The notes: generated by a model from the sequence alone, not told the origin. DNA of 64,000 nucleotides from a virus (IMGVR_UViG_3300047564_003843:1-64000); one strand, 5' to 3'. Positions 1,012 through 19,760 are shown, counted from the first letter of the stretch. Program-made: numbers and translations.

Positions 1012-1734
1012 TTATGTTAAAAGTCTTAAAAGCTTCGCCATCTGTGAGGAAATCTCTGACTGGTTGTAGAGTTCACTACCAGACATAAACTTCTTAAGTT
1101 CTGCGGTTGCAATATCTGCGTCCTCATCGCCAATCTTGTCTTCAACCCGAGAGATCATGTCCTTCATAAGTTTGCGTAGGGCTGGAGGTACATCTGAGAA
1201 TCTAATTTTTTCAGCCTCTGCTCCAAAGGCAAATGGAAGGTTTGCAATAACCTTTCCAAGCTCCGCAGAACTGGTACGAATGTTCTCTAAAGCTTCAGGA
1301 TTAAGGGCTTTTGCGTCCAATCGGTCAATAATCCCGATAAGAGCATCTGCTGCTTTAGCAGCATTGCCATAATCTCCAGCATTGTCAAGGTTTTCAGCCT
1401 CTTCTACCTTGGAAATAACGCGGTCAAGACCAGCAGTTCCAAGGTCGGACTTCAAACGAGCAAGTACTTGACGGAACTTACCTGCAGCATCCCGAGGTTG
1501 AGTTTTAGGGGTGTACTTACCTCGTTCTTTTTCAGCTATATCTCTTGCTGTTTTTTCCAGTTTTAGAGCTTTAATCTCTTCTTCAGTTAAACCTTCTAAT
1601 GCTGGGTCTTCAGCAAAAAGTGCTTCTGATTTTTCAAATACAGCACTTTTTACTCCCCCAGCTGCTAATGCAGCCTGAGTAGAGGAGATAACTTCCCGCA
1701 TTCGAGAAGCGACATCGTCAGTGTTTGTAGTCAC
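1012..1734 (-). CDS. Head-associated helical protein with QPRDAAGKF motif
   Basis: 240-aa ORF between protease and capsid genes; shares the RDxxGxF motif with two upstream head proteins. Confidence 0.6.
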   Translation of the reverse strand: MTTNTDDVASRMREVISSTQAALAAGGVKSAVFEKSEALFAEDPALEGLTEEEIKALKLEKTARDIAEKERGKYTPKTQPRDAAGKFRQVLARLKSDLGTAGLDRVISKVEEAENLDNAGDYGNAAKAADALIGIIDRLDAKALNPEALENIRTSSAELGKVIANLPFAFGAEAEKIRFSDVPPALRKLMKDMISRVEDKIGDEDADIATAELKKFMSGSELYNQSEISSQMAKLLRLLT

Positions 1735-1736
1735 TA

Positions 1737-4700
1737 TTAGTCCTTTTTAGATTCAGTTGACTCTTTCGATTCAAGCACTGCGGCTGCAGCTAGAGCACGC
1801 TCTCTCATTGATGCGATTACAGAATCATCAATAGCAGCTGATTTCCACTTGTCTGGAATCATACCCTCTTTATTAAGGGCACGGGCACGCTTCATAATAT
1901 GCTTGCGAACAAGACCACGCTTACCAGCTTTTGCACGACCATAAGCCTGAATTGCGTTTCTCAAATCTCCAGAATTACGGATAGGAAATGAGCCATCGTC
2001 TAGAGCCTTACCTTCTTCGGCAAGCTTCTTACGTTGCTGGCGAGTAATAACAGCCATTTCTGACTCTGGGTCTTCGTCAAACATTTGAAGCATGTATTCA
2101 GATGCAGCATCTGCTTCTGCCTTTGCACCCGCAACGCGAGCAGAAAGGCTAGCCATTTTTTCAGCCATAGCTGCAGCTTGAGAAGCTTTATGAATACTCT
2201 CTAGAGCATCAATCTTGTAATTGATTTCGGCAATTGGGTCATGCTTCATTTGAGCAAGAACGTTTGCACCTGCTGCAACCAAAGCCATTACCTGACCTGA
2301 TGCAACACGAGCACGAGCAATTGGGAAGCCTGGAACGTTTACTTGGCAAACAGCAACCAGTTCAAGGTGTCCCTTGATTGGTCGCCAGTCACCTGATGGA
2401 GCTGATGCACGAGCGGCTCTGATTTGCTCGGGGGTTGTGCCAGGGCGTAGAGCACCTGAAACCCAAATTCCGTAAGCATCTTCACCTGCGTGCACGTCTG
2501 CGAATGCTGATGCAGTGTCATCATAATGACGCACTGCTTCTTCAGCAGAAGCCTCAAGACCAGCGTGACCGCCAGCCAAAGTTAGTTGACCAACTGGAAC
2601 ATCTTTACCTTCTGCGGTACGAATAATTCCAGTGTGGAAGTATGAATATTTAGAACGACTGCGTGGAGGACGAGTTCCAAACGCCATTCCAATGTGGTCT
2701 ACATGCCAAGCGGCAATGTGACCGAATACGCGACCTTCATCTGTGATGGTGAGTGGAGTCGCTTTATCAAGTTTCTGGTTTTCAAACCATTCTGCAGGAG
2801 GTTCTACAGGAATTGCACCCGCGACCATTCCGCAAGCAACAAGCGCTGATGCGTCTAGTGGGTTCACCCCATCTACATAAATACCATCTGGAACTGACAC
2901 AGCATCCTCCTCTAACTCGTTGCCATCATCAACGATTTGGATATAGCACTCTTGGAATGCTGGTTTTGGCACAATGGTGACAGCCATAATCCGAGCATTC
3001 TTGATTACTATTCTACCCGCCTCTACTTTACCTGAGTCTTCTGAAGCTTCCTCTTCGTCAGCTTCAAACATATCCATGTCAGCGGAAACTCCACGGATAA
3101 ACCCATTGCGAACAAGCCTTTCAGCTTCTTTTCCGTATTCGCCAGTATCAAAAACGCCAACGGCATTTCCAATTCCATCCCCGATGCGCTCCATATGAGT
3201 AATCTGTCCAACAACTACAGAGCCATCGTGACCTTGACCTGTCTTAATCTGCCAAAGTAATGGCAGAGGTAGGTCTCTCATAACTATTACACCTTTATCA
3301 AAGATGCGACCATCCCCAGATTCCTTATTTTCAGGAATAACTAGAGGTATTACAAATTTTGCTCCGTGCTCAACTGGCTTAGCGCCTTCGCGACCTGCAA
3401 ATTTAGCTTTAGCGGCTTCAGCACGAGCAGTCAAAGTAAATGAATCAATAATTTGCTCTTCAGAACGAAGTGCTTCAATACTGGAAACTAAAGACTTCTT
3501 CTTCATACCTGGATTGCGCTTATCTCCTGGCCACATACCAGTCATCTCTTTATGACGTAGTGCGCAGTAGCCCTTAGAACGTGGACCAAGATACTTAGAT
3601 AGATAACGGTGGCAACGAGTCCAGTCTCCTGGGGAGTTCCAACGAATCTTTAATCCGCCCTTGCCAACTGTCCAATAACGACGAAGTTTTTCTGCATTAC
3701 CGCGGTTTTGGTCAGCACCACCAGCGGCAGTGATTGGATTTAGACTCAAAGCCATTGCAATGTTTACATTTAAAGAAGCAACAATTCCACCATCAATTTG
3801 AGAAACAACATCAGCAAGTTGTTCTGTGCTTAGAACAATAGTTGGTGGAGGTGTTGGACTTTTTAGGTCAGCAAGAATTCTTTCATCGCGTTCCCATTTA
3901 CGATTACGACGTTTAAATGTTGCTGGTTGAGTTGTGTCTACACCTGCAGGAACTAGTGCAATTAACTCCATAACTGCAGCTGGATCATCCTCAGCGACAA
4001 TTGCAATGTACATAGGAGCAACGTCTGTTTTTTCAGGGGTAATCTCATAGTTAGGCTTTTTACCCTCAGCTGAAGAAATAATTGACATCTCAAGGTCTGG
4101 GTCAAACTTCTTCATGTAGTCCGCTGCGCTAATCTTTTTTACATCTTTTGCAGACTTTTTGCCCTCTACCTTAGGTCCAAGATTTCCATAAGGGCTACTT
4201 GGTTTGTACCAACCATCTCTGTGATAAGCAGTTTCAGGGTCAGCAGTTTTATTGTATTTCTTATCTAACCAACTACGAAGTAGTGGATTGTTATAAACAT
4301 TTTCTGTTGTAGCAGGATTCCAACCTGGTTTAGGGGTCCCGTCAGGATTAAATGAACCTGTGTAGTACTGACCAAGAACAGTGTTTGGGTCAAGTCGTGT
4401 ATCTACAGCAGGAGAAGTTCCAGCAGCTGGTGCTGGTGCACTTACAGGTTGCCCTGTGTATTCAGGAGTAACTCTTTGGTCTGCAACCCAACTTGTCCAG
4501 TCAGTAAGCATGACTTGAAGACTGTCTACTGTAAGAGGTGGTAGACGTCCTGGAAGTTTTGCTGTTGGCTCATCAATAGGAACTCGAGGCTCTCCAAGAA
4601 TTCCAGAGGTGTCTAATTCAAAACTAGGAAAACCTTGAACAGGAAGTGGTTGATAATCTTCTGCTAACTGAGTCTGATTTGCAGGAACAGCAACAACACT

Positions 4701-5942
4701 TCCACCTGGGAACTCTACGTTAGCTTCCTGAGTATCGGAATTAATAGAAAGAATTTTTCCTGTGTATTTAGGGTCGTTTCCAACAATGACAGTGCTTCCA
4801 GCTTTTGCAAATTTACCAAGCTGGTCTCGTACTTGTCGAGAAGCCTTCTCTGAACGCTCTTCTGGTGTGTAGTCACCGTCTTGATTTGTTGGAGCTTCAG
4901 TAGTTGGAGCACCTACAGCAAGAAGACCATCATCCCACTCATCTACTTCGTAAACATCATCTTCAGATAATTGGTCTAAGAAATTCCAGTCAATTTCAGG
5001 GATTGCTCTTTCAATTAAATCTGATTCATCAAAATCAATCATCTGCACCGATACTGGATTAAAAGGATTGTTATCCAGCATTGCAGAGATTTTTACTGCA
5101 GACTCACGGTCTACAGGAGTATGGATTTTTTGAACTTGGTCATATGGGTCATCAAGCGATTTGTCATATGTGATGAAGTCGTGTTCGATGTGACCCAAGT
5201 CTTCCCAGCAGCCGTCATCCCAAACGGTGCAATAACCTTCAATATCTACTTTATATAAACGATCAATTCCAGAACCGTCTAAACGAATACGAATATAAAA
5301 ATCTGGTTCATAATCTGACGGAGTGAATGCTGTGTAATCAATTCTTTGAATAGGCATGAACTCATCAATTGATGCAACAACTGAATTGTTTGAACGCTTT
5401 TTATTGTCGCGTTCTACTATTGCTGACGCCCACCTCTTGCCCGCGTCTCCACCCCAAAGAGCCCAAGCAATGCGACCGTTGCTGGGGTAATTCGCTTGAC
5501 CCGGTTTATAACCCTTGCCCTTTTTGTCAACTTCATGTCTTGGGAAGTACTTTGCAATGTGGCGGATTTTTGCGATGCCGATTTGGCCGCCGCCAGCAAG
5601 CGTGCGAGCGGTATTAAGCCCGACTGGTGTCCCTCCTCGTTTTTCTTCTCGTCTCCAAGCAAGACCTCTTTTAGCTTCTGCAATAACAGCATCAGGAATT
5701 GTGTACATGTTGCTGCTATCGCCATTACTTAAAACTTTAATATCTAGGTCAGTTACAGCAGCATTTGCAAGTTCAACAGAAGAGGCAACTGGCTTTTCAG
5801 CATAAGTGTCCCAATCTGCAGAAGCAAGCAACACTGAGCTACTGTCTACTCGAACAACAGTGTTTGTAGACTCGTCAATAACTGCTGCTAAGTTTTCGTT
5901 CGAAAATAGAACGTAGCTATCATTTCTACCTAGATATTGCAT
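1737..5942 (-). CDS. Prohead (capsid maturation) protease fusion protein, 1401 aa
   Basis: Protease core ESGDGRIF..LPLPLLWQ..GHDGSVVVGQI..GFIRGVSAD (His/Ser) and VFGHIAAWHVDHIG domain, as in actinophage cluster-B-type maturation proteases. Extra head-protein domains: RIAWALWGG, GNAEKLRRYW..GDWTRC..WPG, and C-terminal DGSFPIRNSGDLRNAI. Confidence 0.8.
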   Translation of the reverse strand: MQYLGRNDSYVLFSNENLAAVIDESTNTVVRVDSSSVLLASADWDTYAEKPVASSVELANAAVTDLDIKVLSNGDSSNMYTIPDAVIAEAKRGLAWRREEKRGGTPVGLNTARTLAGGGQIGIAKIRHIAKYFPRHEVDKKGKGYKPGQANYPSNGRIAWALWGGDAGKRWASAIVERDNKKRSNNSVVASIDEFMPIQRIDYTAFTPSDYEPDFYIRIRLDGSGIDRLYKVDIEGYCTVWDDGCWEDLGHIEHDFITYDKSLDDPYDQVQKIHTPVDRESAVKISAMLDNNPFNPVSVQMIDFDESDLIERAIPEIDWNFLDQLSEDDVYEVDEWDDGLLAVGAPTTEAPTNQDGDYTPEERSEKASRQVRDQLGKFAKAGSTVIVGNDPKYTGKILSINSDTQEANVEFPGGSVVAVPANQTQLAEDYQPLPVQGFPSFELDTSGILGEPRVPIDEPTAKLPGRLPPLTVDSLQVMLTDWTSWVADQRVTPEYTGQPVSAPAPAAGTSPAVDTRLDPNTVLGQYYTGSFNPDGTPKPGWNPATTENVYNNPLLRSWLDKKYNKTADPETAYHRDGWYKPSSPYGNLGPKVEGKKSAKDVKKISAADYMKKFDPDLEMSIISSAEGKKPNYEITPEKTDVAPMYIAIVAEDDPAAVMELIALVPAGVDTTQPATFKRRNRKWERDERILADLKSPTPPPTIVLSTEQLADVVSQIDGGIVASLNVNIAMALSLNPITAAGGADQNRGNAEKLRRYWTVGKGGLKIRWNSPGDWTRCHRYLSKYLGPRSKGYCALRHKEMTGMWPGDKRNPGMKKKSLVSSIEALRSEEQIIDSFTLTARAEAAKAKFAGREGAKPVEHGAKFVIPLVIPENKESGDGRIFDKGVIVMRDLPLPLLWQIKTGQGHDGSVVVGQITHMERIGDGIGNAVGVFDTGEYGKEAERLVRNGFIRGVSADMDMFEADEEEASEDSGKVEAGRIVIKNARIMAVTIVPKPAFQECYIQIVDDGNELEEDAVSVPDGIYVDGVNPLDASALVACGMVAGAIPVEPPAEWFENQKLDKATPLTITDEGRVFGHIAAWHVDHIGMAFGTRPPRSRSKYSYFHTGIIRTAEGKDVPVGQLTLAGGHAGLEASAEEAVRHYDDTASAFADVHAGEDAYGIWVSGALRPGTTPEQIRAARASAPSGDWRPIKGHLELVAVCQVNVPGFPIARARVASGQVMALVAAGANVLAQMKHDPIAEINYKIDALESIHKASQAAAMAEKMASLSARVAGAKAEADAASEYMLQMFDEDPESEMAVITRQQRKKLAEEGKALDDGSFPIRNSGDLRNAIQAYGRAKAGKRGLVRKHIMKRARALNKEGMIPDKWKSAAIDDSVIASMRERALAAAAVLESKESTESKKD

Positions 5943-5944
5943 TA

Positions 5945-6550
5945 TTATTCCTCTACCGCGTAATCTGCTAGGTCTGTTTTAGTGATCTTGTCACCAGCAT
6001 CCCAGCGGCTTACAAGGTCTGCTGATTTGTCATAGTCAATGTCTGTAATTTCTGAGCCGTCATATTCTTCAGACATTTCAGGAGTGGCAGGAGTCCACTT
6101 ACCATCTGTGCGGAAGAAAGTGCCAAGCCCAGTAACTGTGAAGACAACAGCTGTGACGTCGCCAGCATCGTTTGACAATGCCTCAACGGCTTGTTCTAAA
6201 CCGACTTGTTCGTCGATTGCCATCATTTCCTCCATCATTTGCGGGGTTAGAGTCAGTCCATAACCAGTTAGAAGCGCAGAGTCTTCCTCTGTGAACTTCC
6301 TGATTCGATAGGTACCGTCGAACGCAGCAAACTCAATTGTACCGTTGGTTTCCTTAACTAACTCTGGATCAACTGGGTAAAACATGCCGCGTCCTCCACG
6401 AACGAGGATGCCGCTATCGGCTTCATCGTCGTCTCCCTCATACACGAACTGAACTGCATCGAATATAGGGAATTTGATTTGGTCTTCTCCAGATAGTTTC
6501 TCGATAACTCCAGGAGTGCCAAAAATTACGTCTTCAGAGATAAGAGCCAT
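5945..6550 (-). CDS. Acidic hypothetical head-module protein
   Basis: 201-aa ORF translationally coupled to the 3133-aa gene. Confidence 0.6.
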   Translation of the reverse strand: MALISEDVIFGTPGVIEKLSGEDQIKFPIFDAVQFVYEGDDDEADSGILVRGGRGMFYPVDPELVKETNGTIEFAAFDGTYRIRKFTEEDSALLTGYGLTLTPQMMEEMMAIDEQVGLEQAVEALSNDAGDVTAVVFTVTGLGTFFRTDGKWTPATPEMSEEYDGSEITDIDYDKSADLVSRWDAGDKITKTDLADYAVEE

Positions 6551-9500
6551 TATTTCTTAGCCCCTTTCTTTTTCTTTTTACCAGCAACAATGTCTGCTAA
6601 ATCAGTCTTTCCTTCAGACATCAATCTTTCAATCAGCTTTTCTCTAATAGCTGTTGGCATTGATATGGAGGACAAGTCTGCCCAAGAGAGGTTCTTTTTA
6701 AACATCAACTCGCCGTAATTATTGCTTAAAGATTCAACAATGTCTTCCGAGTCAGATTGAAGCTGCCCATACTTATCAGAGTTGTTCTTGTAGTAGTCAA
6801 GACGACGAAGCACACTCTTAGAGTTAAAGTAGAAAGCTAGATTTGAAGAAGTGCTCGAGCCTTTTGATGATGGAGAGGCAAAAACGTAATTTCCTCCGTT
6901 GGCATCAATATCAGAAGAGGAGGACATTCCACTCTTGTTAATCCCATTCATCCAACGAGTAGCAGTTGCGTAGATTCCTCCAGATGTAATAACATCGTAG
7001 AACCAATCAACAGTGTTGGTTTGGTCTCCACCCTTCCAGTTATGAACAATGTGTGGAGAGAATCCTGTCTTCTCCATAAGCTTTTCTACAGCAGCCTCTG
7101 GCATATAATAATTAATACGTCCTCTAGCTAGAGGGTCTGCAACAATTTCAACATCATCTGCAGTAAATCCATACTCTTCTTTGATAATGTCTAAAGTCTT
7201 TTGACGAAGCTCTCCAGCGTAGTTCTTTTTGCCATCAGTTGCTGCACCAAGAAGCCAAATCATTTTGTTTTCAATAACACCTCGAACATCTGACTCAAGG
7301 GCAGGACGAACCTGTGAAATACCACCTAAAGAGTTTAAAGCTTCTGCAACATCTTCAGGAGTTGCATCTGCTGGCAGATAAATCTCTGCTTTGTTGTGAA
7401 ATGAAACAGCGTATGGACTACTACTGTGATACTTAAAGAAGTCGACCTCGGTGTCATCTATTGACTTAGATGCACGGTGAAGAAGGAAAGTTCCCTTTCC
7501 AGCAGGTCCTTCGAAAGTCACACCGTTCTTGTTTGAATCAACAGTGCTGGTATCCCAAGTGTCTTGCCAAACAACAGAACCGTCTGGTTGCTTTTTCCAT
7601 TTATCAAGTCTTAAAGCTTTGGTCTTTGTAATATTTGGGTCTGAGTCTGCTTTAGATGTTACTTGCTTTCCAGCCCAGCTTGTTAGAGTAAATTGCAGAC
7701 GAATTTTCTTTTGACCATCTTTGTCAGTAACCATACCAACGTGAACTTCTAAATCCTCAATTGAATCCGAGTCAAGCAGAGTAGTTGAACCGTTAGCAGC
7801 TTCCGCTGGGTTGTCATTATTTGCCATTTTAAGAGCATCTACTAAAGAAGGAACACTTGGGTGAGGAGATACAGAGTAGTCAGGGGCTGCATCTAAAGTT
7901 TGAATAGCAAAACCTGGACCATTAACTGTGAACTTATCTTTTAAAGCTTTTGCTTCAGCAGCTTGCTGAGCTTTCTTTAGCTTTTCGGCTTGTTGTTTAG
8001 CGTATAACTCACCCTTAGCTTTTGCAGCAGCCTTTGACTTATCAAATAGAGTTTGGTCAATTTCAATGTCTAATTCTTTTGCTTGCTCTGGAGTAATAAA
8101 CTTTTCACGGGACCAGATTTTGTCTGACTTTGTAGATTTTGTCTGTCCAGCTAAAGGACCATCAAAGTATGAAACCTCAATGTCACCAGTCTTTGCATCT
8201 TGCTTTGAGATAACTCCATAGCTAGTTAAATCTTGGTCTGAATCATTTGGGTTAGCGTTTTGGACCAAAATGCCAGGAGCCATGTTCTTAGAGTTAGGGT
8301 CTTTAATAAGTTCACCTTGCAAGAACTGCTTGTAATCGCTGTAATCGTTTGCACCATATGAAGCTAAATGACCAATAGAATTTTTATCTACTGCTTTTGC
8401 TTCTACATCTTTAATTGAAGTAGCACCTGCTAAATCCGCGCCTTCGTATTTAGGCAACTCAACTTTAGGCTCTGTGCTGTTTACTGGCGCAGGGCTGGAT
8501 GGAGTCTTAGGGGTTGTAGGTGTTCCTCCACCGCCACCAGTAGGTCCATCATCTTCTGGTTTATCTGGCTTTACTCCTGAGGTATCTTGAATATCTAGGT
8601 AGGTTGAAACCTTCCAATTCTTCTTTCCATCTTCCCATTGGACTTTTGCAACATCTGTATAAGTGTAACCCTGTGGGTTTGATTTGCTCTTAGATGTAAC
8701 AAGCTCATCCTTAAGAGATACAACCTTTCCAATCTTTCCAGTCTTGGTATCTTTGACAATCATTCCAACCTTAATTGGAGTCTTGCCATCAGCAGATACG
8801 TAAGCACCCTTCTTTGTAGGGATTGCAGAAGGTGCAATAGTTCCTGGAGTTTCTGGCTTAGATTTTGAGATAACTTTACTTGGAGTTATCTTTGCTTTCC
8901 ACTTTTCGTTCTCGATACGGCTTGAAAGAGCAGTGTATGAGTGCCAACGTCCTGCAAGAGTTTTAACTCTAGAAGTTCCGTCATTACCTTTGATTCGGTG
9001 ATAGACACTGAATGTATTATCAGCGTTGCGCTTAACCATTGTGTAAATAGTTGAGCCAGCTGGAGTTACATTCTCAGCAACAACAATGTCACCGTTTTCA
9101 AGTACAGAAATTCCCTTTTCATCTTTTACCTTTGCCCAAATCAAATCTGGGTCTAAAGGCTTCTTCAATTCTTCTGCAAGTGCTACAGGGTCAATTGGCG
9201 CTACTTCATCTTCTGGAGCAGCATCTTCATCTGGAGTTAGAGCTTGCGAAAGGTCAGATTGAATCTTTTCTTCTGGAGTTGCATCTGCAGGAGCAGATGG
9301 AGTGTTTATATCTTCAAGAATTGAATCAATCAGATCTGTGTTAGCACCATCTTGACCCTTTAAAGATTCAAGTAAGTCTTTTGTCTTACCCTTATTACCA
9401 AAAAGTTTTTCTGCAAGAGCAGAGACTTCATCAAGAACCTTTTGCTTCTCTGCTGGATCAATCTGAGCAGCCTCTGGAGCTTGTGGAAGTTCCTTCTCAG

Positions 9501-12500
9501 GTGTTGGAGCAGCCTCTGGTGCTTCTGAAGCAGTAGAACCGCTTTGCTCAAACTTAGAAAGGGTGTAATTCTTCTTTACACCATCTTCACCAATTGCTGA
9601 AAGGTTAATGTTGCCATTCTGTGGGTTCTTCCACACTCCCTTTGGAGTTACAACTCTTTCTTTTCCGTTGTATTTAAATGCAATCTTCTTTCCAGAAGCC
9701 TGAGCAGCAGAAATTTGTGCTTCGATATCACCAGAAGAATCAATAACAACAGTGTTACTGTCAACAACTGGCTTATCCTCTTCAACTGGTTCTTCAGCTG
9801 GCTTTTCACCCAAGAATCGATTAATTAAATACTCACGACGGGCTTTAAGAGTTTCTTTAAGTGAATCAGCAACTTCTGGGTCAGAGATAGCAGCATCTAC
9901 TATTTCATCAATCTTTTCTGGAGTTACTGCTTGAACTTTCTTTACGGACTCAGCAATCTCTTCATCACTCATGCTGCCAAACATTTCAACTGTAAGAGCA
10001 TTAGACATTGCCTTTGAACTACGCATTGAATCAATTTGCGTAGCTTCTGGTCCAAACTCTTTATCAGTTCCACCTTGAGCACGGAATAACAGAGAACCAC
10101 CAGCATCTACTCTGATTATGTTGTTATCAGAATCAACAAGTATGTTGTCGCCGCCAAGACCTGTTACATCATAATTTCCTACCCAAGCGTCAATTGCGAA
10201 GTCTTCTTGAACTTTCTTCTTCAGTTCTGATGATGGGCTTGTTCCTAAAATCTCACCTTGCTTAATTGGAGAAACAAGAACAGTGTTTCCGTTCTTATCT
10301 ACACCCTTATATGCACGACCGAAACTAACACCAGCCTCTTCGTAAAGAGCACCGCCTAATATTTCGTTCTCTGCATGTTTGTCAGACTTTGGCTTCTTAA
10401 CGTAATACTGATTTCCAGTATCTGGGTCTATATAGAATGCACCTTGGTTAGAACCAGCCTGTCCTGCAACTTTTTTCCACTTAGAGGTATCGAACACTGA
10501 AGAGACATCTTCAGGTGAAACTTCTTCTGCTGGAATTGGCTTATCTGTTTTAGCATCTTCATCTTCAAGGTTGCTAACGATATTAGGGAAAGAATCTGCA
10601 AAGTCTGAATGCAACATACCTGCATCAGACATTTTGTTAATCTGATCTCCAGTAAACCAACCAGTTGCAGTGTTCTCTCCATCCTTTGATGAAAGATCGT
10701 TGTACTGATCTGGTCCTACTTCAAAGACAGAAGTTTCGTATGCCCATTCAGCGCCGACTTTGTTTGTGTCAACGTAGATTGGCTCGAGTGCAGAGATGTC
10801 TCCGCCAACTTCTTCCATAAACTCTTCTTTTGCAGTTGCATTAGGAGCCTTAGCAATTGTTTGGTCTTTATGGGCTCCTCCAGGGATTCCCCACTTACCG
10901 CCACCTTGTGACAAAGAACTAGAACGCTTTGCAAGGAAGTATTCGTACTCTCCATCTGCATTCTTACGACGAATAAGAGCACCACCAGCACCATACTTGC
11001 CCCAGAAGCGCTTACCATCTGTAGTAAAGAAGTAGCCTTCACCAGTCTCTTGATTATTTCCGCCACCAAGAGGTGCAAAGAATGGAAGCTTAGGAGGAGT
11101 AAGAGTTCCAGCCTTTAGAGCTTGAACATCTGCAGCAGAAATATTTTCTGCGTAGAAGACGCCATCAGTTCCTTCTGCAATTGTGTAGTCATTCCACTTA
11201 CCAGCGTTTGCTTCCTTTTCAGGAGCTTCATCAATCTCAAGTTGTGGTTGTTCTAATTCTGGCTCTGGTGCAGGAACAGCTTCTGGCTCACCGTTGCGAC
11301 GCCATACTTCGTAAGCTTGATACTTAACCCAAGCAGATTCATACTCTTTTCCATTTGCAAGAAGTCTGCGCTTAACAAGTACACGCTTGTCGTCGCCTTC
11401 AATTGGGGTAATAGAAATAATTTCGTGGAATCCATCGTGCTTTGCCTTGATGAAGTCGCCTGGTTGCCACTCTTCAACAGCAATTGCTCCAACATTTGTT
11501 GTGTTCTCTGGGTCAGATACCCAGTTGTTGGATACGTTTCCGCCCAAGACTGATTCGACTTGAAAGTCTCCATCTGAAAGTTCGGTTGGCTTTGCAGAAG
11601 TAGATGGTGAAACTTCGTCTGAAGTTGGCTTGTCTTTTGGCATAGCCTTGACAAGAGCATCGGTTTCTGGAACATCTTTTCCAGCCATACCATCTGCAAA
11701 AGTCTTTGACATAACAAGTTCGGAGTCTGCTTTGCTCTTTCCAGACTTGTATGCGTCGTACTCTGCTTTTGCCTTGTCATAATCTGCAGAAGACTTCTCA
11801 AGGTCAAGAACATCGATACCAGACTTAGTAACAGCCATCTCATCCAAGAGATTGTTAAGAATTCCAGGCAATACAGCAACGTCAACAGAAGCATCGTGCC
11901 AATCAGTGTTTGGCTCAGCAAGTCCATAACGATTTGCTACAGCCTCAAGCTTGTGGTCTCCTGCGCTTCCATTAATAACCTTGCGAGCAAGTGAGAGTGT
12001 GTCAATCTCGCCAGCTGGTTTGTAATCAAGTCCATACTCGGCCATCTTGCGACGAAGGATTTCTCCATCAAATGGCATGTTGTGTGCAGAAACAATTGGG
12101 TCTGCACCAAGGAAGTCAGAGATTTCTTTAAATGCATCTGCTTGCGACATCTGCTTAGACAAGAACTCATCAGAGATTGGGTTTCCATCTGAGTCTTTAA
12201 GAACTTCTGAAGGGTCTTTGTCAGTATAGAAAGAGTCAAGTGGTTGTTCTGGGTTCATGAAGAGAGTCTTCTCTTCAATGATTTCACCATTCTTAACCTT
12301 GGTCATTGAAACTTGAATTGGGCTTGGAGATGTAAATCCTCCAGTGCTCTCAAAGTCAAGGTGAACTACTTCTTCATTAGCAAGAAGTTCTTTAAATTTA
12401 ACTGGGTCACCATTTGCTTCAGCAGCAATTGCCTTGAGCTTATCTCCCATAAATGCAGGAGGTGTTGGGCGTGAGACCTTCTTTGGCTTAGGTGGAAGTG

Positions 12501-15500
12501 CATCTACATCAATTGGAGGAGTAAATGTTGCAGCAGACTCTTTCTTTGCTGCATTGAACTCTGCATACTTCTCTTTGTATGCAGGGTCATCCTTCTTTGG
12601 ACGCTCGAGTGCTGGCTTCTTGCCTGGTTCTGGTAAATCAGATGCACCACGAATTACTTCGATAGGAGTGGTGCCCTTCCAAGTCTTTGTTTGAGACTGG
12701 TGACCTGGATAGTAACCTGTAACGACAGCATTACCAGTTTCATCAGTTGTTACATCTTGGACAATGAAATACTCGTAGAAGTCATTCTTTCCTTCTTTCT
12801 TGAAGGCAATGTCTCCTGGTTTTACTTCAGTTGCTCCAACCCCAACAACACCGACAGGTTTGCTTGGTGTGTAAACAGGAGCTTCAGATTCAGAAACCCA
12901 CTCTTCTAATCCTTCAGGAGCAGACCACATTTCTTTAGCTTGAGCAAGTTCTTCGTTGTATTTTTCAAAATCTGCTAAATATTGTTTTTGTGCAGCAGCA
13001 TCTTTAGGAACCCAAACTCCTTCAGGGTTCTTGTAAACCTTACCTTCAGGGTCATACTCTTTTGCCTTTGGTTTTGAAAGCACAGGCAAGTCACCCTTTG
13101 TTGGAGCATCTACATTTCTAAAGACAGAAATGTCAGTATCGTTGTTCCACAACTTAGTCTTTTGTGAGACGTGACCTGGATAGTAACCAGTAACCCATGA
13201 CTTACCTGGGAACTCAGAAGGTTCTACAGACTCAATTGTGAAGAAGTCATTTGTTGTGACATCTCCTGCTTTAAGTTCAGTAGTTTTAGCCTTTAACTTT
13301 GCTGGTCCTGTTGGTTCTCCAACTGCAACTCCGTCAACGGCTTCGGGTCCCTTTTCATCCGACGGAGCTTGTTCCGTGGTTTCGGTAGGCGCTTCTTGGG
13401 CAGGTTCTGGTGTGATTTCTTCTGTATCAGGTGCTTCTCCTTCTAGAGCGTCATTAATTTGCTCAGGAGTCAGTGCGTCTTCTTCTTGACCAGCGAAACC
13501 TTCATCATAGATTTCTTTGGTCAAAGCATTGGTGTCTTCACCTTGTAATTGCAGCGCATCACGAATTGCTTCGCCTGGAACATACGCTGAATACTCTTCA
13601 CCATCGTCGGTTTGTGTGCCAAGCATTCCATAACCAGGCATTTCATTTCCTGGCTCAAGAGCACGACGCAATTCGCCCTTCAAATCTTCCGTGTCGTAGT
13701 AATTAGCAATATCAACAGGGTCGTAATTAAATCCTTCAGGTGCATCTTCAGGAATTACGTATTGGTCTTTATCAAATGCTTCTGGAGAAAGCTCTGCGTA
13801 ATCTTCTGGAACATCAAAGGTGTCATTCTTTGGAAGATATTGCTTATACTCACCAGTCTTGGCGTAGTTATCCTTCTCATCGTCAGACAAACCTTCAAGA
13901 AGTGTAGGAAGCTCTGTTGGGTCTCCGCCTTCCATTTCTGGCACTTCTGGTAAGTCTTTACCAAGTTCATCTTTAACTTCATCAGAAACTTCTGGAGTTG
14001 CATCTTTCTTTCCATAAATACCATCAAGAATTGCATCAGCATCTTCACCCTGCTCTTTAAGAGCGTTGTAAATTGCTTCTGCTGGAACAATTTCATCTCC
14101 ATCTTCAAATGGCAAAGTTCCATAACCAGTTGCAGGAGATTTTTCTGTTCCCTTAACACCATCTTCTAGAGATTTCTCAAGAGTTGGAGTATCAAACTTC
14201 TGTGCAAGCTCTGCTGGGTCATCTGTAAAGTCAGAAGCTTCTTGTCCATCAATAGGGCCTTCAGGTGTGTATTCACCGCGGTCTACGTTGTAGTAACCAG
14301 GAGTTGGCTCAGCTGGTTTTTTACCGCTATCTTTTATTTGTTCAGGAAGATTTAATTTTGGTCCTACATCTAATTTTGCTTTTACTGCTGGCTCTTCTGT
14401 AGGAGCTTGTCCAGACGCATCGCGTTCTAACTCTCCAGTTTCAGCGTCAACTACAGAACCATCAGGAAGAAGAATGTGGTCCTTACTTGGGTCAAGTGGG
14501 AATAGCCCACCGTTTTCTTCGTAGTCCTTTAGATTCTTCTTATACTCTTTCATATTCTTCTTAAGGTTCTTCTTTGAAACCTTAGGAATTAATTCACCCT
14601 GAACTTCTGATGCAGGAGTTTCTTCTGGAGTATCTGGAGTTGGTTCTTCTCCTCCCTCATCTAGCATCTTTGCTGGATTTGGAAGTTCGCCCTTCTCAAA
14701 ATTAGGTTCGTCTTGTGAAATGTAATCTTGAACATCAGACCAACGCTGTGCAACAGCAAAAGGCTTGCTGTCATCTTCACCACGGCGAGATACAAAGTAA
14801 ACAGGAAGATTTGGGTCTAATGAACCATTCTTTCCTGCTCCTTCAGTAACAACATTCTGTCCTTCACCCTCGCGTTGCTGCGCTGCTTCAAACTTATCTT
14901 TTGCAGCAGCATTAGGTGTAGAAATTTTAATAACATCGTATGCATCATCTGTGTACTTAGTTCCAAGGTCAATCTTGGTTCCGTAATACTCTTTATCAAC
15001 GTCACTTGGAGACCAGCTCTCATCTTTACTAAATCCAGCAGGTGCATCAATCTTTACAAGATCAGCTTCCTCGATAACTGGGTCACCAGTTTTTACCTTT
15101 GCTGCAGTCTTGCTGTATCCATCTGGACCCTGAGCAGACTTAAGAATTGCCTTAACACCTTCAGCAGACTTTGCAGGGACGCGAACTAAATCACCATTTG
15201 GTAATTCCATATCGAAGGTATCGCTACCTTCATCAGTTGCTACAGCACGACCACTAAGAGATTGAACTGCTCCACTAATACGACGAATAAGTGCACGTAG
15301 ACCGCCACCCATCTCAGCAAAGCGACCCTTACGGTCACGGCGCTGACGCATAGCACGAGCACGACGGGCTGCAGGAGAGTTTCCATCTCCTAGAGCAGCA
15401 AGAAGTGCATACTGAGGCACAGAGCCTTGAGGCATTGATTGCAAGCGAGCAATAGAGTATTCATACTCAGGTGAAGCTGGATGTGCTGTTAAAGCAGAAG

Positions 15501-15951
15501 AAAGAATTGAACGAACAGTATCGTCTTGAATATTTGGGTCATCAATAATCCAACGAGCACGGTGCTTCATTACCTCTGCAGCGCTGAGCTCATGCTTGCG
15601 AGTTGAACGTGGGTGTGAAATAGGAAGTAAGTCTGTATTTTCAGGAGAGACGGAAAAAACCTTGTTGTACTGAGCAAGTTGGATATAACCATTAAGCTCT
15701 TTTAAAGTGCGCATACGGCGCAGCGAATAAGTTTCGTTCTCATACTTAGATAAGCAACGAGTCATAACAGACTTAGCGGCTCTACGAGTAATAAGTCTTG
15801 AACCAGAGAATTTAGTGTTTGCAGATTTAACTATGTCAAAACCTGCTTCTAGGATTCTTTCATTCTGTTGTTCTAGAGAAAGAGTCTTAACTTTCTTCTT
15901 TGCAATAGCAATAGCAGCTTGCTGCTTAGGTGTCTTTGAATACTTGGCCAT
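6550..15951 (-). CDS. Giant polyvalent virion protein (DEDDh exonuclease + MutT3-like Nudix + HipA/PI-kinase-like + WYL + putative ADP-ribosyltransferase, with SH3-like repeats)
   Basis: DEDDh: HLDFESTG/AHNMPFD/HDASVD. Nudix: RFWGKYGAGG..WGIPGG..EEFMEEVG. Kinase-like: GSNQG..YYVK..NE..NYDV..DNIL..RVDAG. WYL: KIAFKYNGKERVVTP. ART-like: IVH..GGIYAT..NYVF..GELMFK. Confidence 0.75.
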   Translation of the reverse strand: MAKYSKTPKQQAAIAIAKKKVKTLSLEQQNERILEAGFDIVKSANTKFSGSRLITRRAAKSVMTRCLSKYENETYSLRRMRTLKELNGYIQLAQYNKVFSVSPENTDLLPISHPRSTRKHELSAAEVMKHRARWIIDDPNIQDDTVRSILSSALTAHPASPEYEYSIARLQSMPQGSVPQYALLAALGDGNSPAARRARAMRQRRDRKGRFAEMGGGLRALIRRISGAVQSLSGRAVATDEGSDTFDMELPNGDLVRVPAKSAEGVKAILKSAQGPDGYSKTAAKVKTGDPVIEEADLVKIDAPAGFSKDESWSPSDVDKEYYGTKIDLGTKYTDDAYDVIKISTPNAAAKDKFEAAQQREGEGQNVVTEGAGKNGSLDPNLPVYFVSRRGEDDSKPFAVAQRWSDVQDYISQDEPNFEKGELPNPAKMLDEGGEEPTPDTPEETPASEVQGELIPKVSKKNLKKNMKEYKKNLKDYEENGGLFPLDPSKDHILLPDGSVVDAETGELERDASGQAPTEEPAVKAKLDVGPKLNLPEQIKDSGKKPAEPTPGYYNVDRGEYTPEGPIDGQEASDFTDDPAELAQKFDTPTLEKSLEDGVKGTEKSPATGYGTLPFEDGDEIVPAEAIYNALKEQGEDADAILDGIYGKKDATPEVSDEVKDELGKDLPEVPEMEGGDPTELPTLLEGLSDDEKDNYAKTGEYKQYLPKNDTFDVPEDYAELSPEAFDKDQYVIPEDAPEGFNYDPVDIANYYDTEDLKGELRRALEPGNEMPGYGMLGTQTDDGEEYSAYVPGEAIRDALQLQGEDTNALTKEIYDEGFAGQEEDALTPEQINDALEGEAPDTEEITPEPAQEAPTETTEQAPSDEKGPEAVDGVAVGEPTGPAKLKAKTTELKAGDVTTNDFFTIESVEPSEFPGKSWVTGYYPGHVSQKTKLWNNDTDISVFRNVDAPTKGDLPVLSKPKAKEYDPEGKVYKNPEGVWVPKDAAAQKQYLADFEKYNEELAQAKEMWSAPEGLEEWVSESEAPVYTPSKPVGVVGVGATEVKPGDIAFKKEGKNDFYEYFIVQDVTTDETGNAVVTGYYPGHQSQTKTWKGTTPIEVIRGASDLPEPGKKPALERPKKDDPAYKEKYAEFNAAKKESAATFTPPIDVDALPPKPKKVSRPTPPAFMGDKLKAIAAEANGDPVKFKELLANEEVVHLDFESTGGFTSPSPIQVSMTKVKNGEIIEEKTLFMNPEQPLDSFYTDKDPSEVLKDSDGNPISDEFLSKQMSQADAFKEISDFLGADPIVSAHNMPFDGEILRRKMAEYGLDYKPAGEIDTLSLARKVINGSAGDHKLEAVANRYGLAEPNTDWHDASVDVAVLPGILNNLLDEMAVTKSGIDVLDLEKSSADYDKAKAEYDAYKSGKSKADSELVMSKTFADGMAGKDVPETDALVKAMPKDKPTSDEVSPSTSAKPTELSDGDFQVESVLGGNVSNNWVSDPENTTNVGAIAVEEWQPGDFIKAKHDGFHEIISITPIEGDDKRVLVKRRLLANGKEYESAWVKYQAYEVWRRNGEPEAVPAPEPELEQPQLEIDEAPEKEANAGKWNDYTIAEGTDGVFYAENISAADVQALKAGTLTPPKLPFFAPLGGGNNQETGEGYFFTTDGKRFWGKYGAGGALIRRKNADGEYEYFLAKRSSSLSQGGGKWGIPGGAHKDQTIAKAPNATAKEEFMEEVGGDISALEPIYVDTNKVGAEWAYETSVFEVGPDQYNDLSSKDGENTATGWFTGDQINKMSDAGMLHSDFADSFPNIVSNLEDEDAKTDKPIPAEEVSPEDVSSVFDTSKWKKVAGQAGSNQGAFYIDPDTGNQYYVKKPKSDKHAENEILGGALYEEAGVSFGRAYKGVDKNGNTVLVSPIKQGEILGTSPSSELKKKVQEDFAIDAWVGNYDVTGLGGDNILVDSDNNIIRVDAGGSLLFRAQGGTDKEFGPEATQIDSMRSSKAMSNALTVEMFGSMSDEEIAESVKKVQAVTPEKIDEIVDAAISDPEVADSLKETLKARREYLINRFLGEKPAEEPVEEDKPVVDSNTVVIDSSGDIEAQISAAQASGKKIAFKYNGKERVVTPKGVWKNPQNGNINLSAIGEDGVKKNYTLSKFEQSGSTASEAPEAAPTPEKELPQAPEAAQIDPAEKQKVLDEVSALAEKLFGNKGKTKDLLESLKGQDGANTDLIDSILEDINTPSAPADATPEEKIQSDLSQALTPDEDAAPEDEVAPIDPVALAEELKKPLDPDLIWAKVKDEKGISVLENGDIVVAENVTPAGSTIYTMVKRNADNTFSVYHRIKGNDGTSRVKTLAGRWHSYTALSSRIENEKWKAKITPSKVISKSKPETPGTIAPSAIPTKKGAYVSADGKTPIKVGMIVKDTKTGKIGKVVSLKDELVTSKSKSNPQGYTYTDVAKVQWEDGKKNWKVSTYLDIQDTSGVKPDKPEDDGPTGGGGGTPTTPKTPSSPAPVNSTEPKVELPKYEGADLAGATSIKDVEAKAVDKNSIGHLASYGANDYSDYKQFLQGELIKDPNSKNMAPGILVQNANPNDSDQDLTSYGVISKQDAKTGDIEVSYFDGPLAGQTKSTKSDKIWSREKFITPEQAKELDIEIDQTLFDKSKAAAKAKGELYAKQQAEKLKKAQQAAEAKALKDKFTVNGPGFAIQTLDAAPDYSVSPHPSVPSLVDALKMANNDNPAEAANGSTTLLDSDSIEDLEVHVGMVTDKDGQKKIRLQFTLTSWAGKQVTSKADSDPNITKTKALRLDKWKKQPDGSVVWQDTWDTSTVDSNKNGVTFEGPAGKGTFLLHRASKSIDDTEVDFFKYHSSSPYAVSFHNKAEIYLPADATPEDVAEALNSLGGISQVRPALESDVRGVIENKMIWLLGAATDGKKNYAGELRQKTLDIIKEEYGFTADDVEIVADPLARGRINYYMPEAAVEKLMEKTGFSPHIVHNWKGGDQTNTVDWFYDVITSGGIYATATRWMNGINKSGMSSSSDIDANGGNYVFASPSSKGSSTSSNLAFYFNSKSVLRRLDYYKNNSDKYGQLQSDSEDIVESLSNNYGELMFKKNLSWADLSSISMPTAIREKLIERLMSEGKTDLADIVAGKKKKKGAKK

Positions 15952-15953
15952 TG

Positions 15954-17300
15954 CTAGCTCTTCCTTTTCGGCAGAAGGTCGGAATCCATGCTGTCGTATG
16001 TCATTGTTGCAAGAACAGCTGCTCGCTTAAATGGGTTTTCATTGTTGCGAACTGCACGAAGCCAAGATGCACGGAATGCAGACTCTGCTTCATAACCTAG
16101 ACCTGCAAATTCTGTCATAGCAAAGATTGCTTGTTCTGGAGTTTCATAATCTAACTCGGACTTCAACTCAACATTAAGTTCTGCATCTGCTTCAGCGGAT
16201 GCAAGTAAAAGCTCAAGGTCTTCTTCATCGCGAACAGGAACGTCATAACCTGACACTGCACCCTCTGGTAGAACAGCAAAGCGGCATTTGCCATCTGCTT
16301 CAACCTCAAGGGAGATAATCTGGCACTTATTTGGGCCTTGGAAAAATACGCAGTTTGAACACTTAACTCCGATGTCTTTAACTTCGTTCTCATAAGCAGG
16401 TGTGTAACCAGCCCACACTCCGTCACCATCTTGGTCAAATGGTCCATGCTTTCGAGTAATTGCAATAAGCGCATCTGCTAAATCTTGCTCTTCTGGAATT
16501 AAACCTGAAGCGATAATTGTAGAAGCGTTCTTCTTTGAAGAACGTGGGTGTGCTGCTGGTAGTAAATCGTTATCTGCTTTGTATGCAGAGTTCTTTGGCT
16601 TGCCAGACTTAAGTAGGCGCAAGAATGCATTTACACGACCCATTGCCCATTGGTTGCGAGTCATTCCTGGACGATGTGAAACAGAGTAGGCACCAGCACC
16701 ACGGCGATATACAGCTTTTAGGGTTGAGACAGAAGTCTTGCGACCTTTTGGAGCTTTCTCATTGTGCTCTTCTACCTTCTTGCGAAGAGACGATTCAATT
16801 GCTGGAGTAAAAGTGATTTTCTTTCCACCTGAAGCTGAGCCTTTTGAATTCTTGTCAGAACCTTTGACACGGTCTTTCTTTGGTGCAGGTGTTTGAGAGA
16901 TTGTTTTTTTCTTTTTTGTTGCAGAAGCTGTTACAGGACCACCAGAAACCCAAGCGCGGCAAGTCCTAGCACTAGCGCACTTAAAATCAAACGCTTCGCA
17001 ATATCCGAGGTCACCAGCTTCTTGAATTGAATCGTATTTATCATTTTGTTCTCCTGTGAGTCCACTGGCAATGCAGTCCAGCATCTCTGGAGTCTGAATA
17101 AAGACAGCACAGTTACCACAACGTTGTTTCTTTGCTGTCTCAGCGTCTACTTGCCATTCGTCAGCAAGTGCTTGCCAATACTCATCGTTTGGTTCTGTTG
17201 GATTAAGTGGACCGTACATTGCAGTATCAATTGCTTTTTTACGGTTATCAAGATTAAGAGCAACATCTTGTGTTGCAGGGGGGCAAGTTTCTTCAGCCAT
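15954..17300 (-). CDS. Cys-rich multi-domain head-module protein (two HiPIP-like CxxC..C..C domains and a DLLPxxHPRS domain)
   Basis: RCGNCAVF..GYCEAFDFKCASARTCRAW; LKAVYRRGAGAY..QWAMGRVNAF..DNDLLPAAHPRS; KCSNCVFFQGPNKCQ..GKCRF. Confidence 0.6.
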   Translation of the reverse strand: MAEETCPPATQDVALNLDNRKKAIDTAMYGPLNPTEPNDEYWQALADEWQVDAETAKKQRCGNCAVFIQTPEMLDCIASGLTGEQNDKYDSIQEAGDLGYCEAFDFKCASARTCRAWVSGGPVTASATKKKKTISQTPAPKKDRVKGSDKNSKGSASGGKKITFTPAIESSLRKKVEEHNEKAPKGRKTSVSTLKAVYRRGAGAYSVSHRPGMTRNQWAMGRVNAFLRLLKSGKPKNSAYKADNDLLPAAHPRSSKKNASTIIASGLIPEEQDLADALIAITRKHGPFDQDGDGVWAGYTPAYENEVKDIGVKCSNCVFFQGPNKCQIISLEVEADGKCRFAVLPEGAVSGYDVPVRDEEDLELLLASAEADAELNVELKSELDYETPEQAIFAMTEFAGLGYEAESAFRASWLRAVRNNENPFKRAAVLATMTYDSMDSDLLPKRKS

Positions 17301-19402: not shown

Positions 19403-19760
19403 TTGGGTCCTCCGTAGAAGCAACAATACCGTTGAATGGGTTCCAACCCCTCAACCGAGAGCCACAACCGCAATTGGTGTCCTTTATGAAGGCCAGCATC
19501 TTGCCTGATTCGGTTTTTACCCTGTCCAAGCCTTTTTCATTAATCATTTCAACTATCTTTTCCCGAAACACAAGTTGCGGACCTTCTGGAGAATCCACAG
19601 CTATCAAAACTGTCTCATTCAAAACTACAACCCTGCAACGGTCCAATTTCCTAGTCCCTTGGGGCATATCTCCCTTGACACTGGTCATGCTTAGTTCGGA
19701 AAGGGCGCCCGGAGAAATGAGTTTTACGATTGCTGGAAAGACATCTAACTGCTTTTTCAT
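19389..19760 (-). CDS. Hypothetical protein (CGCGS motif)
   Basis: 123-aa ORF in a coupled operon. Confidence 0.6.
   Translation of the reverse strand: MKKQLDVFPAIVKLISPGALSELSMTSVKGDMPQGTRKLDRCRVVVLNETVLIAVDSPEGPQLVFREKIVEMINEKGLDRVKTESGKMLAFIKDTNCGCGSRLRGWNPFNGIVASTEDPSGII

Follow-up and report, generated by a model that had tools for sequence, protein, structure and literature searches.

Phages and conjugative elements encode polyvalent proteins, in which 2-15 effector domains are joined in a single polypeptide (Iyer, Burroughs, Anand, de Souza and Aravind 2017; PMC5512222), and virion-packaged ADP-ribosyltransferases (ARTs), Nudix proteins and polyvalent proteins have been proposed for phages, especially myoviruses (PMC5512222, PMC9503650). 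Large enzymes or ARTs that are housed in the head and leave it together with the DNA (PMC3012670, PMC9024508, PMC7411985) include T4 Alt and the T4 internal proteins, P1 DarB, the N4 virion RNA polymerase and the SPN3US ejection proteins. Here we describe P0001, a 3133-amino acid (aa) protein encoded by a single unbroken open reading frame (ORF) at 6550..15951 (-) of the window, a 64,000-nucleotide (nt) stretch of viral DNA (IMGVR_UViG_3300047564_003843:1-64000) that forms the first 64 kb of a virus record of 160,704 bp in a single contig. Feature coordinates given below as start..end are window positions, and all of these features lie on the minus strand. The polyvalent, virion-associated kind of protein was already published in 2017, and we assign P0001 to a branch of the phage polyvalent proteins; what is new is its family and MuF-less anchor, a motif common to the protease and scaffold-position proteins, the DEDDh exonuclease, RenU-type Nudix and CtkA-type kinase modules, the occurrence of a DarT-like ART in a phage head protein, and a strict linkage of kinase and ART. 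We favour, with moderate confidence, the interpretation that P0001 is a polyvalent effector that is packed in the capsid and ejected, whose packaging and targets we infer.

As in the polyvalent proteins, one giant polypeptide encoded among late virion genes carries many unrelated effector domains; P0001 has at least five enzymatic or sensor domains along with several barrels, and its family, whose members differ in the set and order of their domains, bears the hub domains ArdC-N, MPTase-PolyVal, UvrD-type helicase and ART. Of the hub domains of polyvalent proteins, which include MPTase, ArdC-N, MuF, ART and SNF2, P0001 itself has the ART fold only, while ArdC-N and MPTase-PolyVal are found at E <1e-46 in the relative P0134 (ArdC-N E 6e-47, MPTase-PolyVal E 5e-49), whose cargo also includes a UvrD helicase. 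P0001 differs from the described polyvalent proteins in its distinct and previously undescribed anchor and in having no MuF, ArdC-N or MPTase. In the main text of PMC5512222 the term 'DEDDh' is absent, and 'exonuclease' and 'Nudix' each appear a single time, the former only in the title of a reference. The kinase of that paper is a Ser/Thr/Tyr-type enzyme without a C-lobe from phages of Bacteroidetes and Verrucomicrobia, whereas that of P0001 is of the CtkA/HipA type, and the hosts of the present family are actinobacteria, with all members uncultured. T4 Alt and the other ejected proteins resemble the arrangement proposed here in that a short N-terminal signal leads to the prohead and scaffold and protease genes lie nearby; however, the T4-type leader is a cleaved sequence of 10 aa, whereas the P0001 motif lies at approximately residue 200 inside a 400-aa domain and is a putative packaging signal. 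The T4, P1, N4 and SPN3US proteins have no sequence or fold relation to P0001.

A preliminary description of this DNA, drawn up by a model from the sequence, had placed one 3133-aa ORF between the portal and protease genes, and this was confirmed. A word-indexed search identified 99 homologues of 2-5 thousand amino acids (kaa), nearly all of them metagenomic. As these align over their full length, several of them from residue 1, the frame is neither fused nor mis-called; mis-assembly or fusion of the ORF was likewise rejected on account of identical synteny in independent 139-kb contigs. The ORF lies within a compact head module. The portal gene (17300..19084; phrog_776 E 1e-108, 74% identity to the portal of Actinomycetia phage DSL-LC01) is abutted by the gene for a 448-aa DUF5824 protein (15954..17300; Pfam DUF5824 E 4.6e-9), and the ATG of the giant ORF lies immediately downstream of the stop codon of this gene. 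The stop of the giant ORF in turn overlaps the start of a 201-aa gene (5945..6550), a homologue of gp83 of Microbacterium phage Pumpernickel (E 4e-10), which is followed by the gene for a 1401-aa prohead-protease fusion protein (1737..5942; phrog_18402 head maturation protease E 3.5e-56) and by that for a 240-aa protein in scaffold position (1012..1734), beyond which comes the major head protein gene. The same order, namely portal, DUF5824, giant, 201-aa gene, protease fusion, scaffold-like gene and capsid, is found in the independent 139-kb contigs, in DSL-LC01 and in Pumpernickel.

Family alignment and profile searches defined an N-terminal anchor domain at aa 15-430 (14662..15909). This domain is always N-terminal in family members, its matches being the first ~400 residues of proteins of 2-7 kaa, and its profile, when searched against 1.84 billion representatives, retrieved 567 clusters with a threshold of E 1e-3 and 221 with one of E 1e-30. 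Within the anchor lies an invariant motif, QRRDRKGRFAEMGGG (aa 203-217; 15301..15345), and no other element of the giant proteins is as well conserved as this motif with its QRRDRKGRF core (Q 204/204, R 200/204, D 199/204, G 200/204, F/W 204/204). The motif was found in 89 of 105 proteins, and most of the remaining 16 have no anchor match by BLAST and appear to be N-terminally truncated or very distant.

The form Q-x-R-D-x-x-G-[KR]-F is common to the giant, the 1401-aa protease protein (aa ~372) and the 240-aa protein, where it reads QPRDAAGKF. When ORFs of >150 aa across the genome were searched with the looser pattern R-[DE]-x-x-G-[KR]-[FWY], matches were the giant (aa 203), the protease fusion, the 240-aa protein and their duplicates at the other end of the contig, with one further match in a 1251-codon ORF that lacks the leading Q. 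In DSL-LC01 the motif is present in the giant, the portal-adjacent protein and the protease, and in Pumpernickel it occurs in gp82, which begins with it, and twice in gp84; gp82 otherwise shares with P0001 one short similar region (aa ~2208-2365, E 2e-04). The sites of the form Q-x-R-D-x-x-G-[KRQ]-F are at 4829, 1494 and 15339 of the window, at 19716, 22888 and 34365 of L001, and at 17035, 25242 and 28398 of L002, and the carriers of the motif span three distantly related actinophages. Our literature search returned no paper that mentions it. A motif common to the protease, the scaffold-position protein and the carrier of the cargo is what would be expected of a procapsid-targeting or portal/capsid-docking signal, and we propose it as a candidate for such a role, in analogy to the T4 capsid-targeting sequence though without relation to it. 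As a candidate short capsid-targeting motif across distant phages, it could serve for loading cargo into capsids. In the DUF5824 slot of DSL-LC01 the encoded protein bears an extended motif, MQRRDRKGRFAEMGGG, that is near-identical to that of the giant.

The preliminary description had noted that no MuF domain was evident, and no match to PF04233 (MuF) was found in P0001 or in six frames of the 160.7-kb genome at E up to 10, with positive controls being recovered, although no profile-profile comparison with the anchor was made. The absence of MuF and of a portal fusion would be accommodated if P0001 were a late cytoplasmic factor for takeover or assembly that is never packaged and whose place among the head genes serves its timing alone. 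It would then act in the producing cell, for instance by shutting off host DNA metabolism or defence at a late stage, or as a chaperone or scaffold of assembly that is later removed. In keeping with this, the motif is also carried by the protease and scaffold-position proteins, which are often degraded or expelled from mature heads. We regard this explanation as quite improbable, since counter-defence enzymes would be of little use late in infection, and since an anchor that is strictly N-terminal in 567 clusters and is joined to freely exchangeable cargo is what a handle for delivery would look like. Proteins of this class have, moreover, been argued to be virion-borne (PMC5512222).

The cargo behind the anchor is modular, as is typical of polyvalent proteins. 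A BLAST map of the family resolved modules with sharp borders, comprising the anchor, the R repeats, S-S-Exo-Y, Nudix, Kin-W-X1-KOW and a C-terminal KOW/TBP-like/mid/ART block. We then scanned module hidden Markov models (HMMs) over 248 proteins, 208 of which were anchor-bearing giants; in this sample, which is partly biased to relatives of the query so that proportions are indicative only, R repeats were detected in 198/208 giants, the exonuclease in 138/208, the kinase in 91/208, the ART in 85/208, WYL in 81/208 and Nudix in 47/208. Across the family S-S-Exo-Y forms one fixed cassette, and the TBP-like and ART modules are paired in 80/80 cases. The ART never occurs without the kinase (85/85) and Nudix nearly never without the ART (46/47 together); these co-occurrences suggest a coupled biochemistry. 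Module order varies in distant members, such as P0069 and P0079, where the kinase lies upstream of Nudix, and other members carry ADPrib_exo_Tox and PI3/PI4 kinase domains. The combination of domains, which the preliminary description did not recognise, is not unique and represents one architecture within a large modular family that has ties to the published polyvalent proteins. Members are known from uncultured sources only, and the largest has 7004 aa. The DSL-LC01 homologue (3289 aa) is annotated as 'hypothetical protein', is not mentioned in the part of the DSL-LC01 paper covered here, and has two WYL copies near its N-terminus. C-terminal halves of four exonuclease-only relatives had no Pfam family.

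Most of the domains of P0001 had been named in the preliminary description, with coordinates that proved correct to within a few codons for the exonuclease, Nudix, kinase, WYL and ART domains. The first of these, described there as a DEDDh exonuclease with all motifs, is a DnaQ/PolC-type 3'-5' exonuclease at aa 1189-1412 (11716..12387) that was recovered by Pfam, PHROG and NCBIfam-type profiles. Pfam RNase_T (PF00929) matches aa 1196-1360 (nt 11872-12366) at E 7.8e-12, with 46.5 bits against a cut-off of 24, and phrog_192 and the PolC exonuclease region match at E 1.9e-23 and E 2e-21, respectively. The motifs Exo I (D-x-E), Exo II (N-x-x-F-D) and Exo III-epsilon (H-x-A-x-x-D) are all present, as LDFESTG, HNMPFDG and HDASVD, and D1199, E1201, D1295, H1352 and D1357 are kept in 138-139 of 139 family members.

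The second enzyme, at aa 1636-1787 (10591..11046), had been read as a MutT3-type Nudix domain with a divergent box and is a RenU/MutT3-like Nudix hydrolase. In phmmer searches mycobacterial RenU (PDB 6uuf) matched at E 3e-8 when all of P0001 served as query and at E 1e-9 when the domain alone did, the alignment spanning the full Nudix domain (query residues 37-188 of 211) and including the N-terminal G-x-G-W...RFWG extension. It differs from RenU/MutT3 in that the box, K-E-E-F-M-E-E-V-G, diverges from the canonical G-x5-E-x7-R-E-U-x-E-E-x-G-U and is preceded by an insertion, and Pfam NUDIX (PF00293) scores 16.2 bits, below its cut-off of 21.1. The glutamates E1710, E1713 and E1714 are invariant (50/50).

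Downstream lies an atypical protein-kinase-like domain of the CtkA/CotH/PI4K-II/HipA type (aa 1818-2048; 9808..10500), as the proposal of a HipA/CtkA/PI-kinase-type enzyme had anticipated. An AlphaFold2 model of aa 1800-2500, built from a 49-row alignment, had a mean predicted local distance difference test (pLDDT) score of 80.7, with the kinase part mostly >90. Foldseek matched the kinase model to CtkA (E 3.4e-6) and to 445 kinase chains at E <1e-3, and VIA, an aligner that is independent of Foldseek, likewise placed CtkA at Z 15.6 (root-mean-square deviation (rmsd) 3.2 over 203 aa), with further matches to CotH (Z 13.6), PI4KIIa (13.1), MavQ (12.9) and HipA (11.9), and also to Fam20 and actin-fragmin kinase. 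Hints at the sequence level were fainter: HipA_2 was detected in 5/21 relatives (best E 0.0017), CtkA was the top, non-significant PDB match, and P0001 itself had no Pfam HipA_C or HipA_2 match above threshold. K1852, E1863, D1928, N1936 and D1949 are each conserved in 98/98 sequences and are assigned as the ATP-binding Lys, helix-C Glu, catalytic Asp/Asn and metal Asp, their equivalence to CtkA residues being by motif order and not by superposition. The domain thus shares with CtkA, HipA/HipT, CotH, PI4K type II, MavQ and actin-fragmin kinase both the atypical fold and the invariant Lys, Glu, Asp...Asn and Asp positions, and differs from them in an 8-residue D-to-N spacing with an insert and in its sub-threshold sequence signals. 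The W-x-G-N-x-D context of its catalytic loop presumably resembles the HipA motif.

The same model contains a WYL-fold domain at aa 2073-2141 (9529..9735), in agreement with the WYL-like domain proposed earlier. VIA matched it to the WYL domain of DriD (Z 8.5, rmsd 1.9, 63 aa, 25% identity) and to PafBC (Z 8.3), both solved as DNA-bound structures of transcription activators; P0001 had no Pfam WYL match, and in translation the position expected for the W-Y-L signature reads I-N-L. Relatives contain as many as four tandem WYL copies. In the 5-7 kaa members P0210 (7004 aa), P0200, P0227, P0230 and P0234, up to four tandem WYL copies directly follow the anchor, P0210 has two kinase domains, and thousands of residues lie outside the P0001-derived module HMMs. 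Two barrels follow in P0001, a KOW/Tudor-type SH3 barrel at aa 2382-2460 (8572..8808; VIA match to DSIF KOW4, Z 8.9, rmsd 1.4, 56 aa) and a second KOW/Tudor-type barrel followed by a long helix at aa 2544-2630 (8062..8322), with weak matches to Spt5 KOW and Tudor (VIA Z 5.0-5.7).

The C-terminus consists of a fixed TBPl-mid-ART cassette, which begins with a TBP-like/helix-grip alpha+beta domain (aa 2727-2879; 7315..7773; weak VIA match to TBP, Z 4.7-5.3) and ends with a fold similar to that of DarT ADP-ribosyltransferases (aa 2952-3124; 6580..7098), where a DarT-like ART with an H..Y..E spacing had been suggested. An AlphaFold2 model of aa 2500-3133 was built from 36 rows (pLDDT 88.4, predicted template modelling score 0.78), and its top Foldseek match was DarT (E 0.035, probability 0.98). 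Against 48,161 chains, the top 4 VIA matches were all DarT, namely E. coli DarT1 (Z 8.8, rmsd 3.6, 147 aa) and the enzymes of Thermosipho (7.8), Thermus (7.5) and M. tuberculosis (7.2), and other ART folds ranked after them, namely Tpt1, CopC/OspC3 and SopF. On re-examination all 7 DarT entries occupied ranks 1-7, with Z 6.8-8.8. As these Z values are middling, we limit the claim to an ART fold that is nearest to DarT and do not propose family membership.

Thermus DarT has the catalytic set H13, R51, Y71 and E160, of which R51 is a DarT-specific catalytic residue (PMC9967889). P0001 has the same ordered H...R...Y...E series at a similar spacing (29, 23 and 59 residues), and its residues are highly conserved, with H2970 in 82/82 aligned sequences, R2999 in 91/91, Y3022 in 85/91 and E3081 in 87/91, the remaining four having Q. 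The modelled alignment, which is best for DarT over ~145 residues, is consistent with H2970 lying opposite H13 (model residue 461 against chain residue 3) provided that the alignment has no gap within its first ten residues; R2999 may correspond to R51. The domain differs from DarT in several respects: identity is 8-14% without Pfam-level membership, the ARTT region is shorter (Y-to-E 59 residues vs 89), the ART is fused C-terminally to a head protein, preceded by the fixed TBP-like and 'mid' cassette, and it has no DarG or NADAR partner and is phage-encoded, whereas DarT, the ssDNA thymidine or guanosine ADP-ribosyltransferase of DarTG toxin-antitoxin systems, is a host-encoded defence enzyme. 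Profile searches of P0001 gave no Pfam DarT (PF14487) match and no PDB sequence match, and PADLOC gave no DarT match. Fold searches of BFVD and ESM-Atlas with the C-terminal model returned uncharacterised proteins only, with weak scores, and the shorter stand-alone relatives of the domain were contig-end fragments and one 783-aa protein only. In the searched parts of a 2022 survey of viral NAD/ADP-ribose systems, no phage-borne DarT-like ART was found, and the only viral DarT-related family mentioned there is the arthropod-virus ORF28 family.

In P0026, encoded by the second giant ORF of the contig (142983-152468 (-)), and in P0025, P0034 and P0036, Gln replaces the catalytic Glu of the ART (S-Q-I-M-F-K) while H, R and Y are kept; these ARTs may have altered chemistry or be inactive binding modules. 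The last 10 codons of the P0001 ORF (6550-6579) encode a Lys-rich tail, G-K-K-K-K-K-G-A-K-K, that is present in close relatives only and may have a nucleic-acid-binding or targeting function. The near-invariance of catalytic residues across the modules indicates that these enzymes are under selection.

The presence of a kinase and an ART could also be read as the signature of a 'Trojan horse' toxin against grazers, in which the two enzymes would hit eukaryotic predators that ingest infected cells. Freshwater phages with VIP2-type ART toxins have been given such a role (PMC6802176), CtkA, the nearest kinase of solved structure, is made by a bacterium and acts upon cells of its host, and some relatives carry ADPrib_exo_Tox. 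We give this idea hardly any credence, since the ART here is DarT-like and not VIP2-like, neither a module for translocation or receptor binding nor a secretion signal or AB-toxin partner was seen, and the DEDDh and WYL domains, together with the ArdC-N and MPTase domains of relatives, are typical of conflict between phage and bacterium.

We return to the view of P0001 as a capsid-packed, ejected effector, for which we propose the following mechanism. The anchor, with its QRRDRKGRF motif, would recruit the protein to the procapsid by means of the motif that the scaffold-like protein and the prohead protease also carry, and the rest of the chain would form independently folding cargo modules with linkers rich in proline and acidic residues between them. 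Upon infection P0001 would exit the capsid alongside the DNA and act early in the actinobacterial host. There, the DEDDh exonuclease would trim the 3' ends of single-stranded nucleic acid, and the RenU-like Nudix domain would hydrolyse ADP-ribose, NAD(H), FAD-type dinucleotides, or NAD-type caps and signals; virion Nudix proteins have been proposed generally to clear ADP-ribose/NAD-derived products or signals (PMC9503650). The CtkA/HipA-type kinase would phosphorylate some host target, the WYL and KOW/Tudor barrels would bind nucleic acid or a ligand, and the DarT-like enzyme would use NAD+ to ADP-ribosylate a nucleic-acid base or end, stalling host replication or disabling defence nucleic acid. 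Because many modules are nucleic-acid-centred (DEDDh, WYL, KOW/Tudor and the DarT-like ART), nucleic acid is the probable main target. The preliminary description had likewise seen an injected toolkit; its folds, catalytic residues and head position stand, while packaging, injection, removal of signals and host targeting, and with them substrates and timing, are what we infer. Of its suggestion that host targets are ADP-ribosylated, the ART fold was upheld, and the likeness to DarT suggests that the acceptor is more likely nucleic acid than protein.

Several observations weigh against this interpretation. The anchor has no match in Pfam, PHROGs, NCBIfam, a PDB profile search or ESM-Atlas features, and P0001 is without MuF, portal fusion, ArdC-N or MPTase. 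The Pfam DarT signal among relatives is marginal (2/31 at E 0.037), and the structural link depends on a predicted model with a middling Z of 8.8. Of the 50,697 phage records of GenBank, DSL-LC01, itself assembled from a metagenome, is alone in having the N- or C-terminal modules, and so there is no virion proteome for the family. A 3133-aa protein must also pass through the portal and tail unfolded, as is known for other ejection proteins. Finally, no Macro or NADAR match was found in the genome at E up to 1, and sparing of the phage's own DNA is thus hard to explain. The 201-aa gene next to the giant was considered as an antitoxin for the ART and rejected, being homologous to the gene that follows the giant of Pumpernickel; as that giant has no ART, the 201-aa gene is not an ART-specific immunity gene.

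For these last two reasons we give some weight to the explanation that P0001 is packaged but acts on the phage's own DNA, trimming, capping or protecting the genome ends during packaging or ejection, for instance with ADP-ribosylated or trimmed termini that block end-dependent nucleases of the host. The absence of an encoded antidote that removes ADP-ribose is easier to understand if phage DNA is the intended substrate, the modules are in large part nucleic-acid-centred (DEDDh, WYL, KOW/Tudor, DarT-like ART), Tpt1, the next structural relative after DarT, acts on nucleic-acid phosphates, and S-S-Exo-Y is the most widespread cargo (138/208). However, 117 of the 208 giants lack both the kinase and the ART and 70 lack the exonuclease, so that no cargo module is essential to genome handling, and relatives swap in host-directed ArdC-N, MPTase and helicase modules. 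Divergence within the family also bears on this point. The 24-kb contig ends, 1-24059 and 136445-160704, are collinear at 67-84% nt identity and each contain a giant gene; between the two copies the protease gene is 84% and the portal side 80% identical in nt sequence, whereas the giant gene falls to 67-70% identity in its middle part or cannot be aligned there, and aa identity of modules ranges from 34% (X2) to 83% (Nudix). The pattern in close relatives is mosaic, with P0002 being 99% identical to P0001 in the kinase and 88% in the exonuclease and P0003 showing the reverse (70% and 98%). Such divergence and mosaicism would fit recombinational shuffling under conflict, and fit conflict better than housekeeping, and we consider action on the phage's own DNA unlikely overall.

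Under the preferred reading of P0001 as an injected effector, a broader proposal can be made, which we offer tentatively and hold to be possible rather than probable. A 400-residue anchor with its motif, which the prohead protease and scaffold would also use, may constitute a previously undescribed, MuF-independent system of capsid loading for 2-7 kaa of exchangeable cargo. One common set of cargo would be the obligately linked CtkA-type kinase and DarT-like ART, in most cases together with a RenU-like Nudix domain, in which a DarT-type defence enzyme has been turned into an injected weapon and kinase, ART and Nudix act in one pathway. If so, the abundant actinobacterial phages of freshwater and soil would hold a large and diverse reservoir of injected multi-enzyme proteins without a cultured representative, and a phage-borne DarT-like ART would reverse the known direction of the DarT weapon.

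Several further features of the locus and its source were identified. Two WhiB-family genes lie ~1 kb apart beyond the window (genome 109875-110078 and 110862-111071), and relatives of the portal are found in DSL-LC01, in 186-195-kb Microbacterium and Arthrobacter phages and in Gordonia and Mycobacterium phages; because of these WhiB genes and portal relatives, the actinobacterial host assumed in the preliminary description is well supported. The G+C content of this DNA is 43%, which suggests a low-GC freshwater lineage, and megablast against GenBank phages gave no match to the locus. Related contigs of ~139 kb carry one copy of the head module, and the duplicated ends of the present contig look as though metagenome assembly of a circular or permuted genome of ~136 kb had run on into a related strain, and not like a true terminal repeat.

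Between the anchor and the exonuclease, P0001 contains two pairs of internal repeats, which correspond to the duplicated helical module and the two VTGYYPGH units noted beforehand. The copies of helical repeat R are at aa 575-646 (14014..14229) and aa 741-815 (13507..13731), with a self-BLAST E of 1.6e-8, and those of the VTGYYPGH repeat S, a putative SH3-like unit, are at aa 902-962 (13066..13248) and aa 1060-1119 (12595..12774), with a self-BLAST E of 2e-10. The region that holds both (aa 430-1190) had no Pfam family in P0001 or in nine relatives. The DUF5824 protein (15954-17300) is tightly coupled with the portal and the giant, with synteny kept. In the 1401-aa protein (1737-5942), protease-related PHROG matches are at aa ~850-1290 and the N-terminal 850 aa are mostly without assignment; in DSL-LC01 the region equivalent to this fusion consists of two genes, both annotated as protease.

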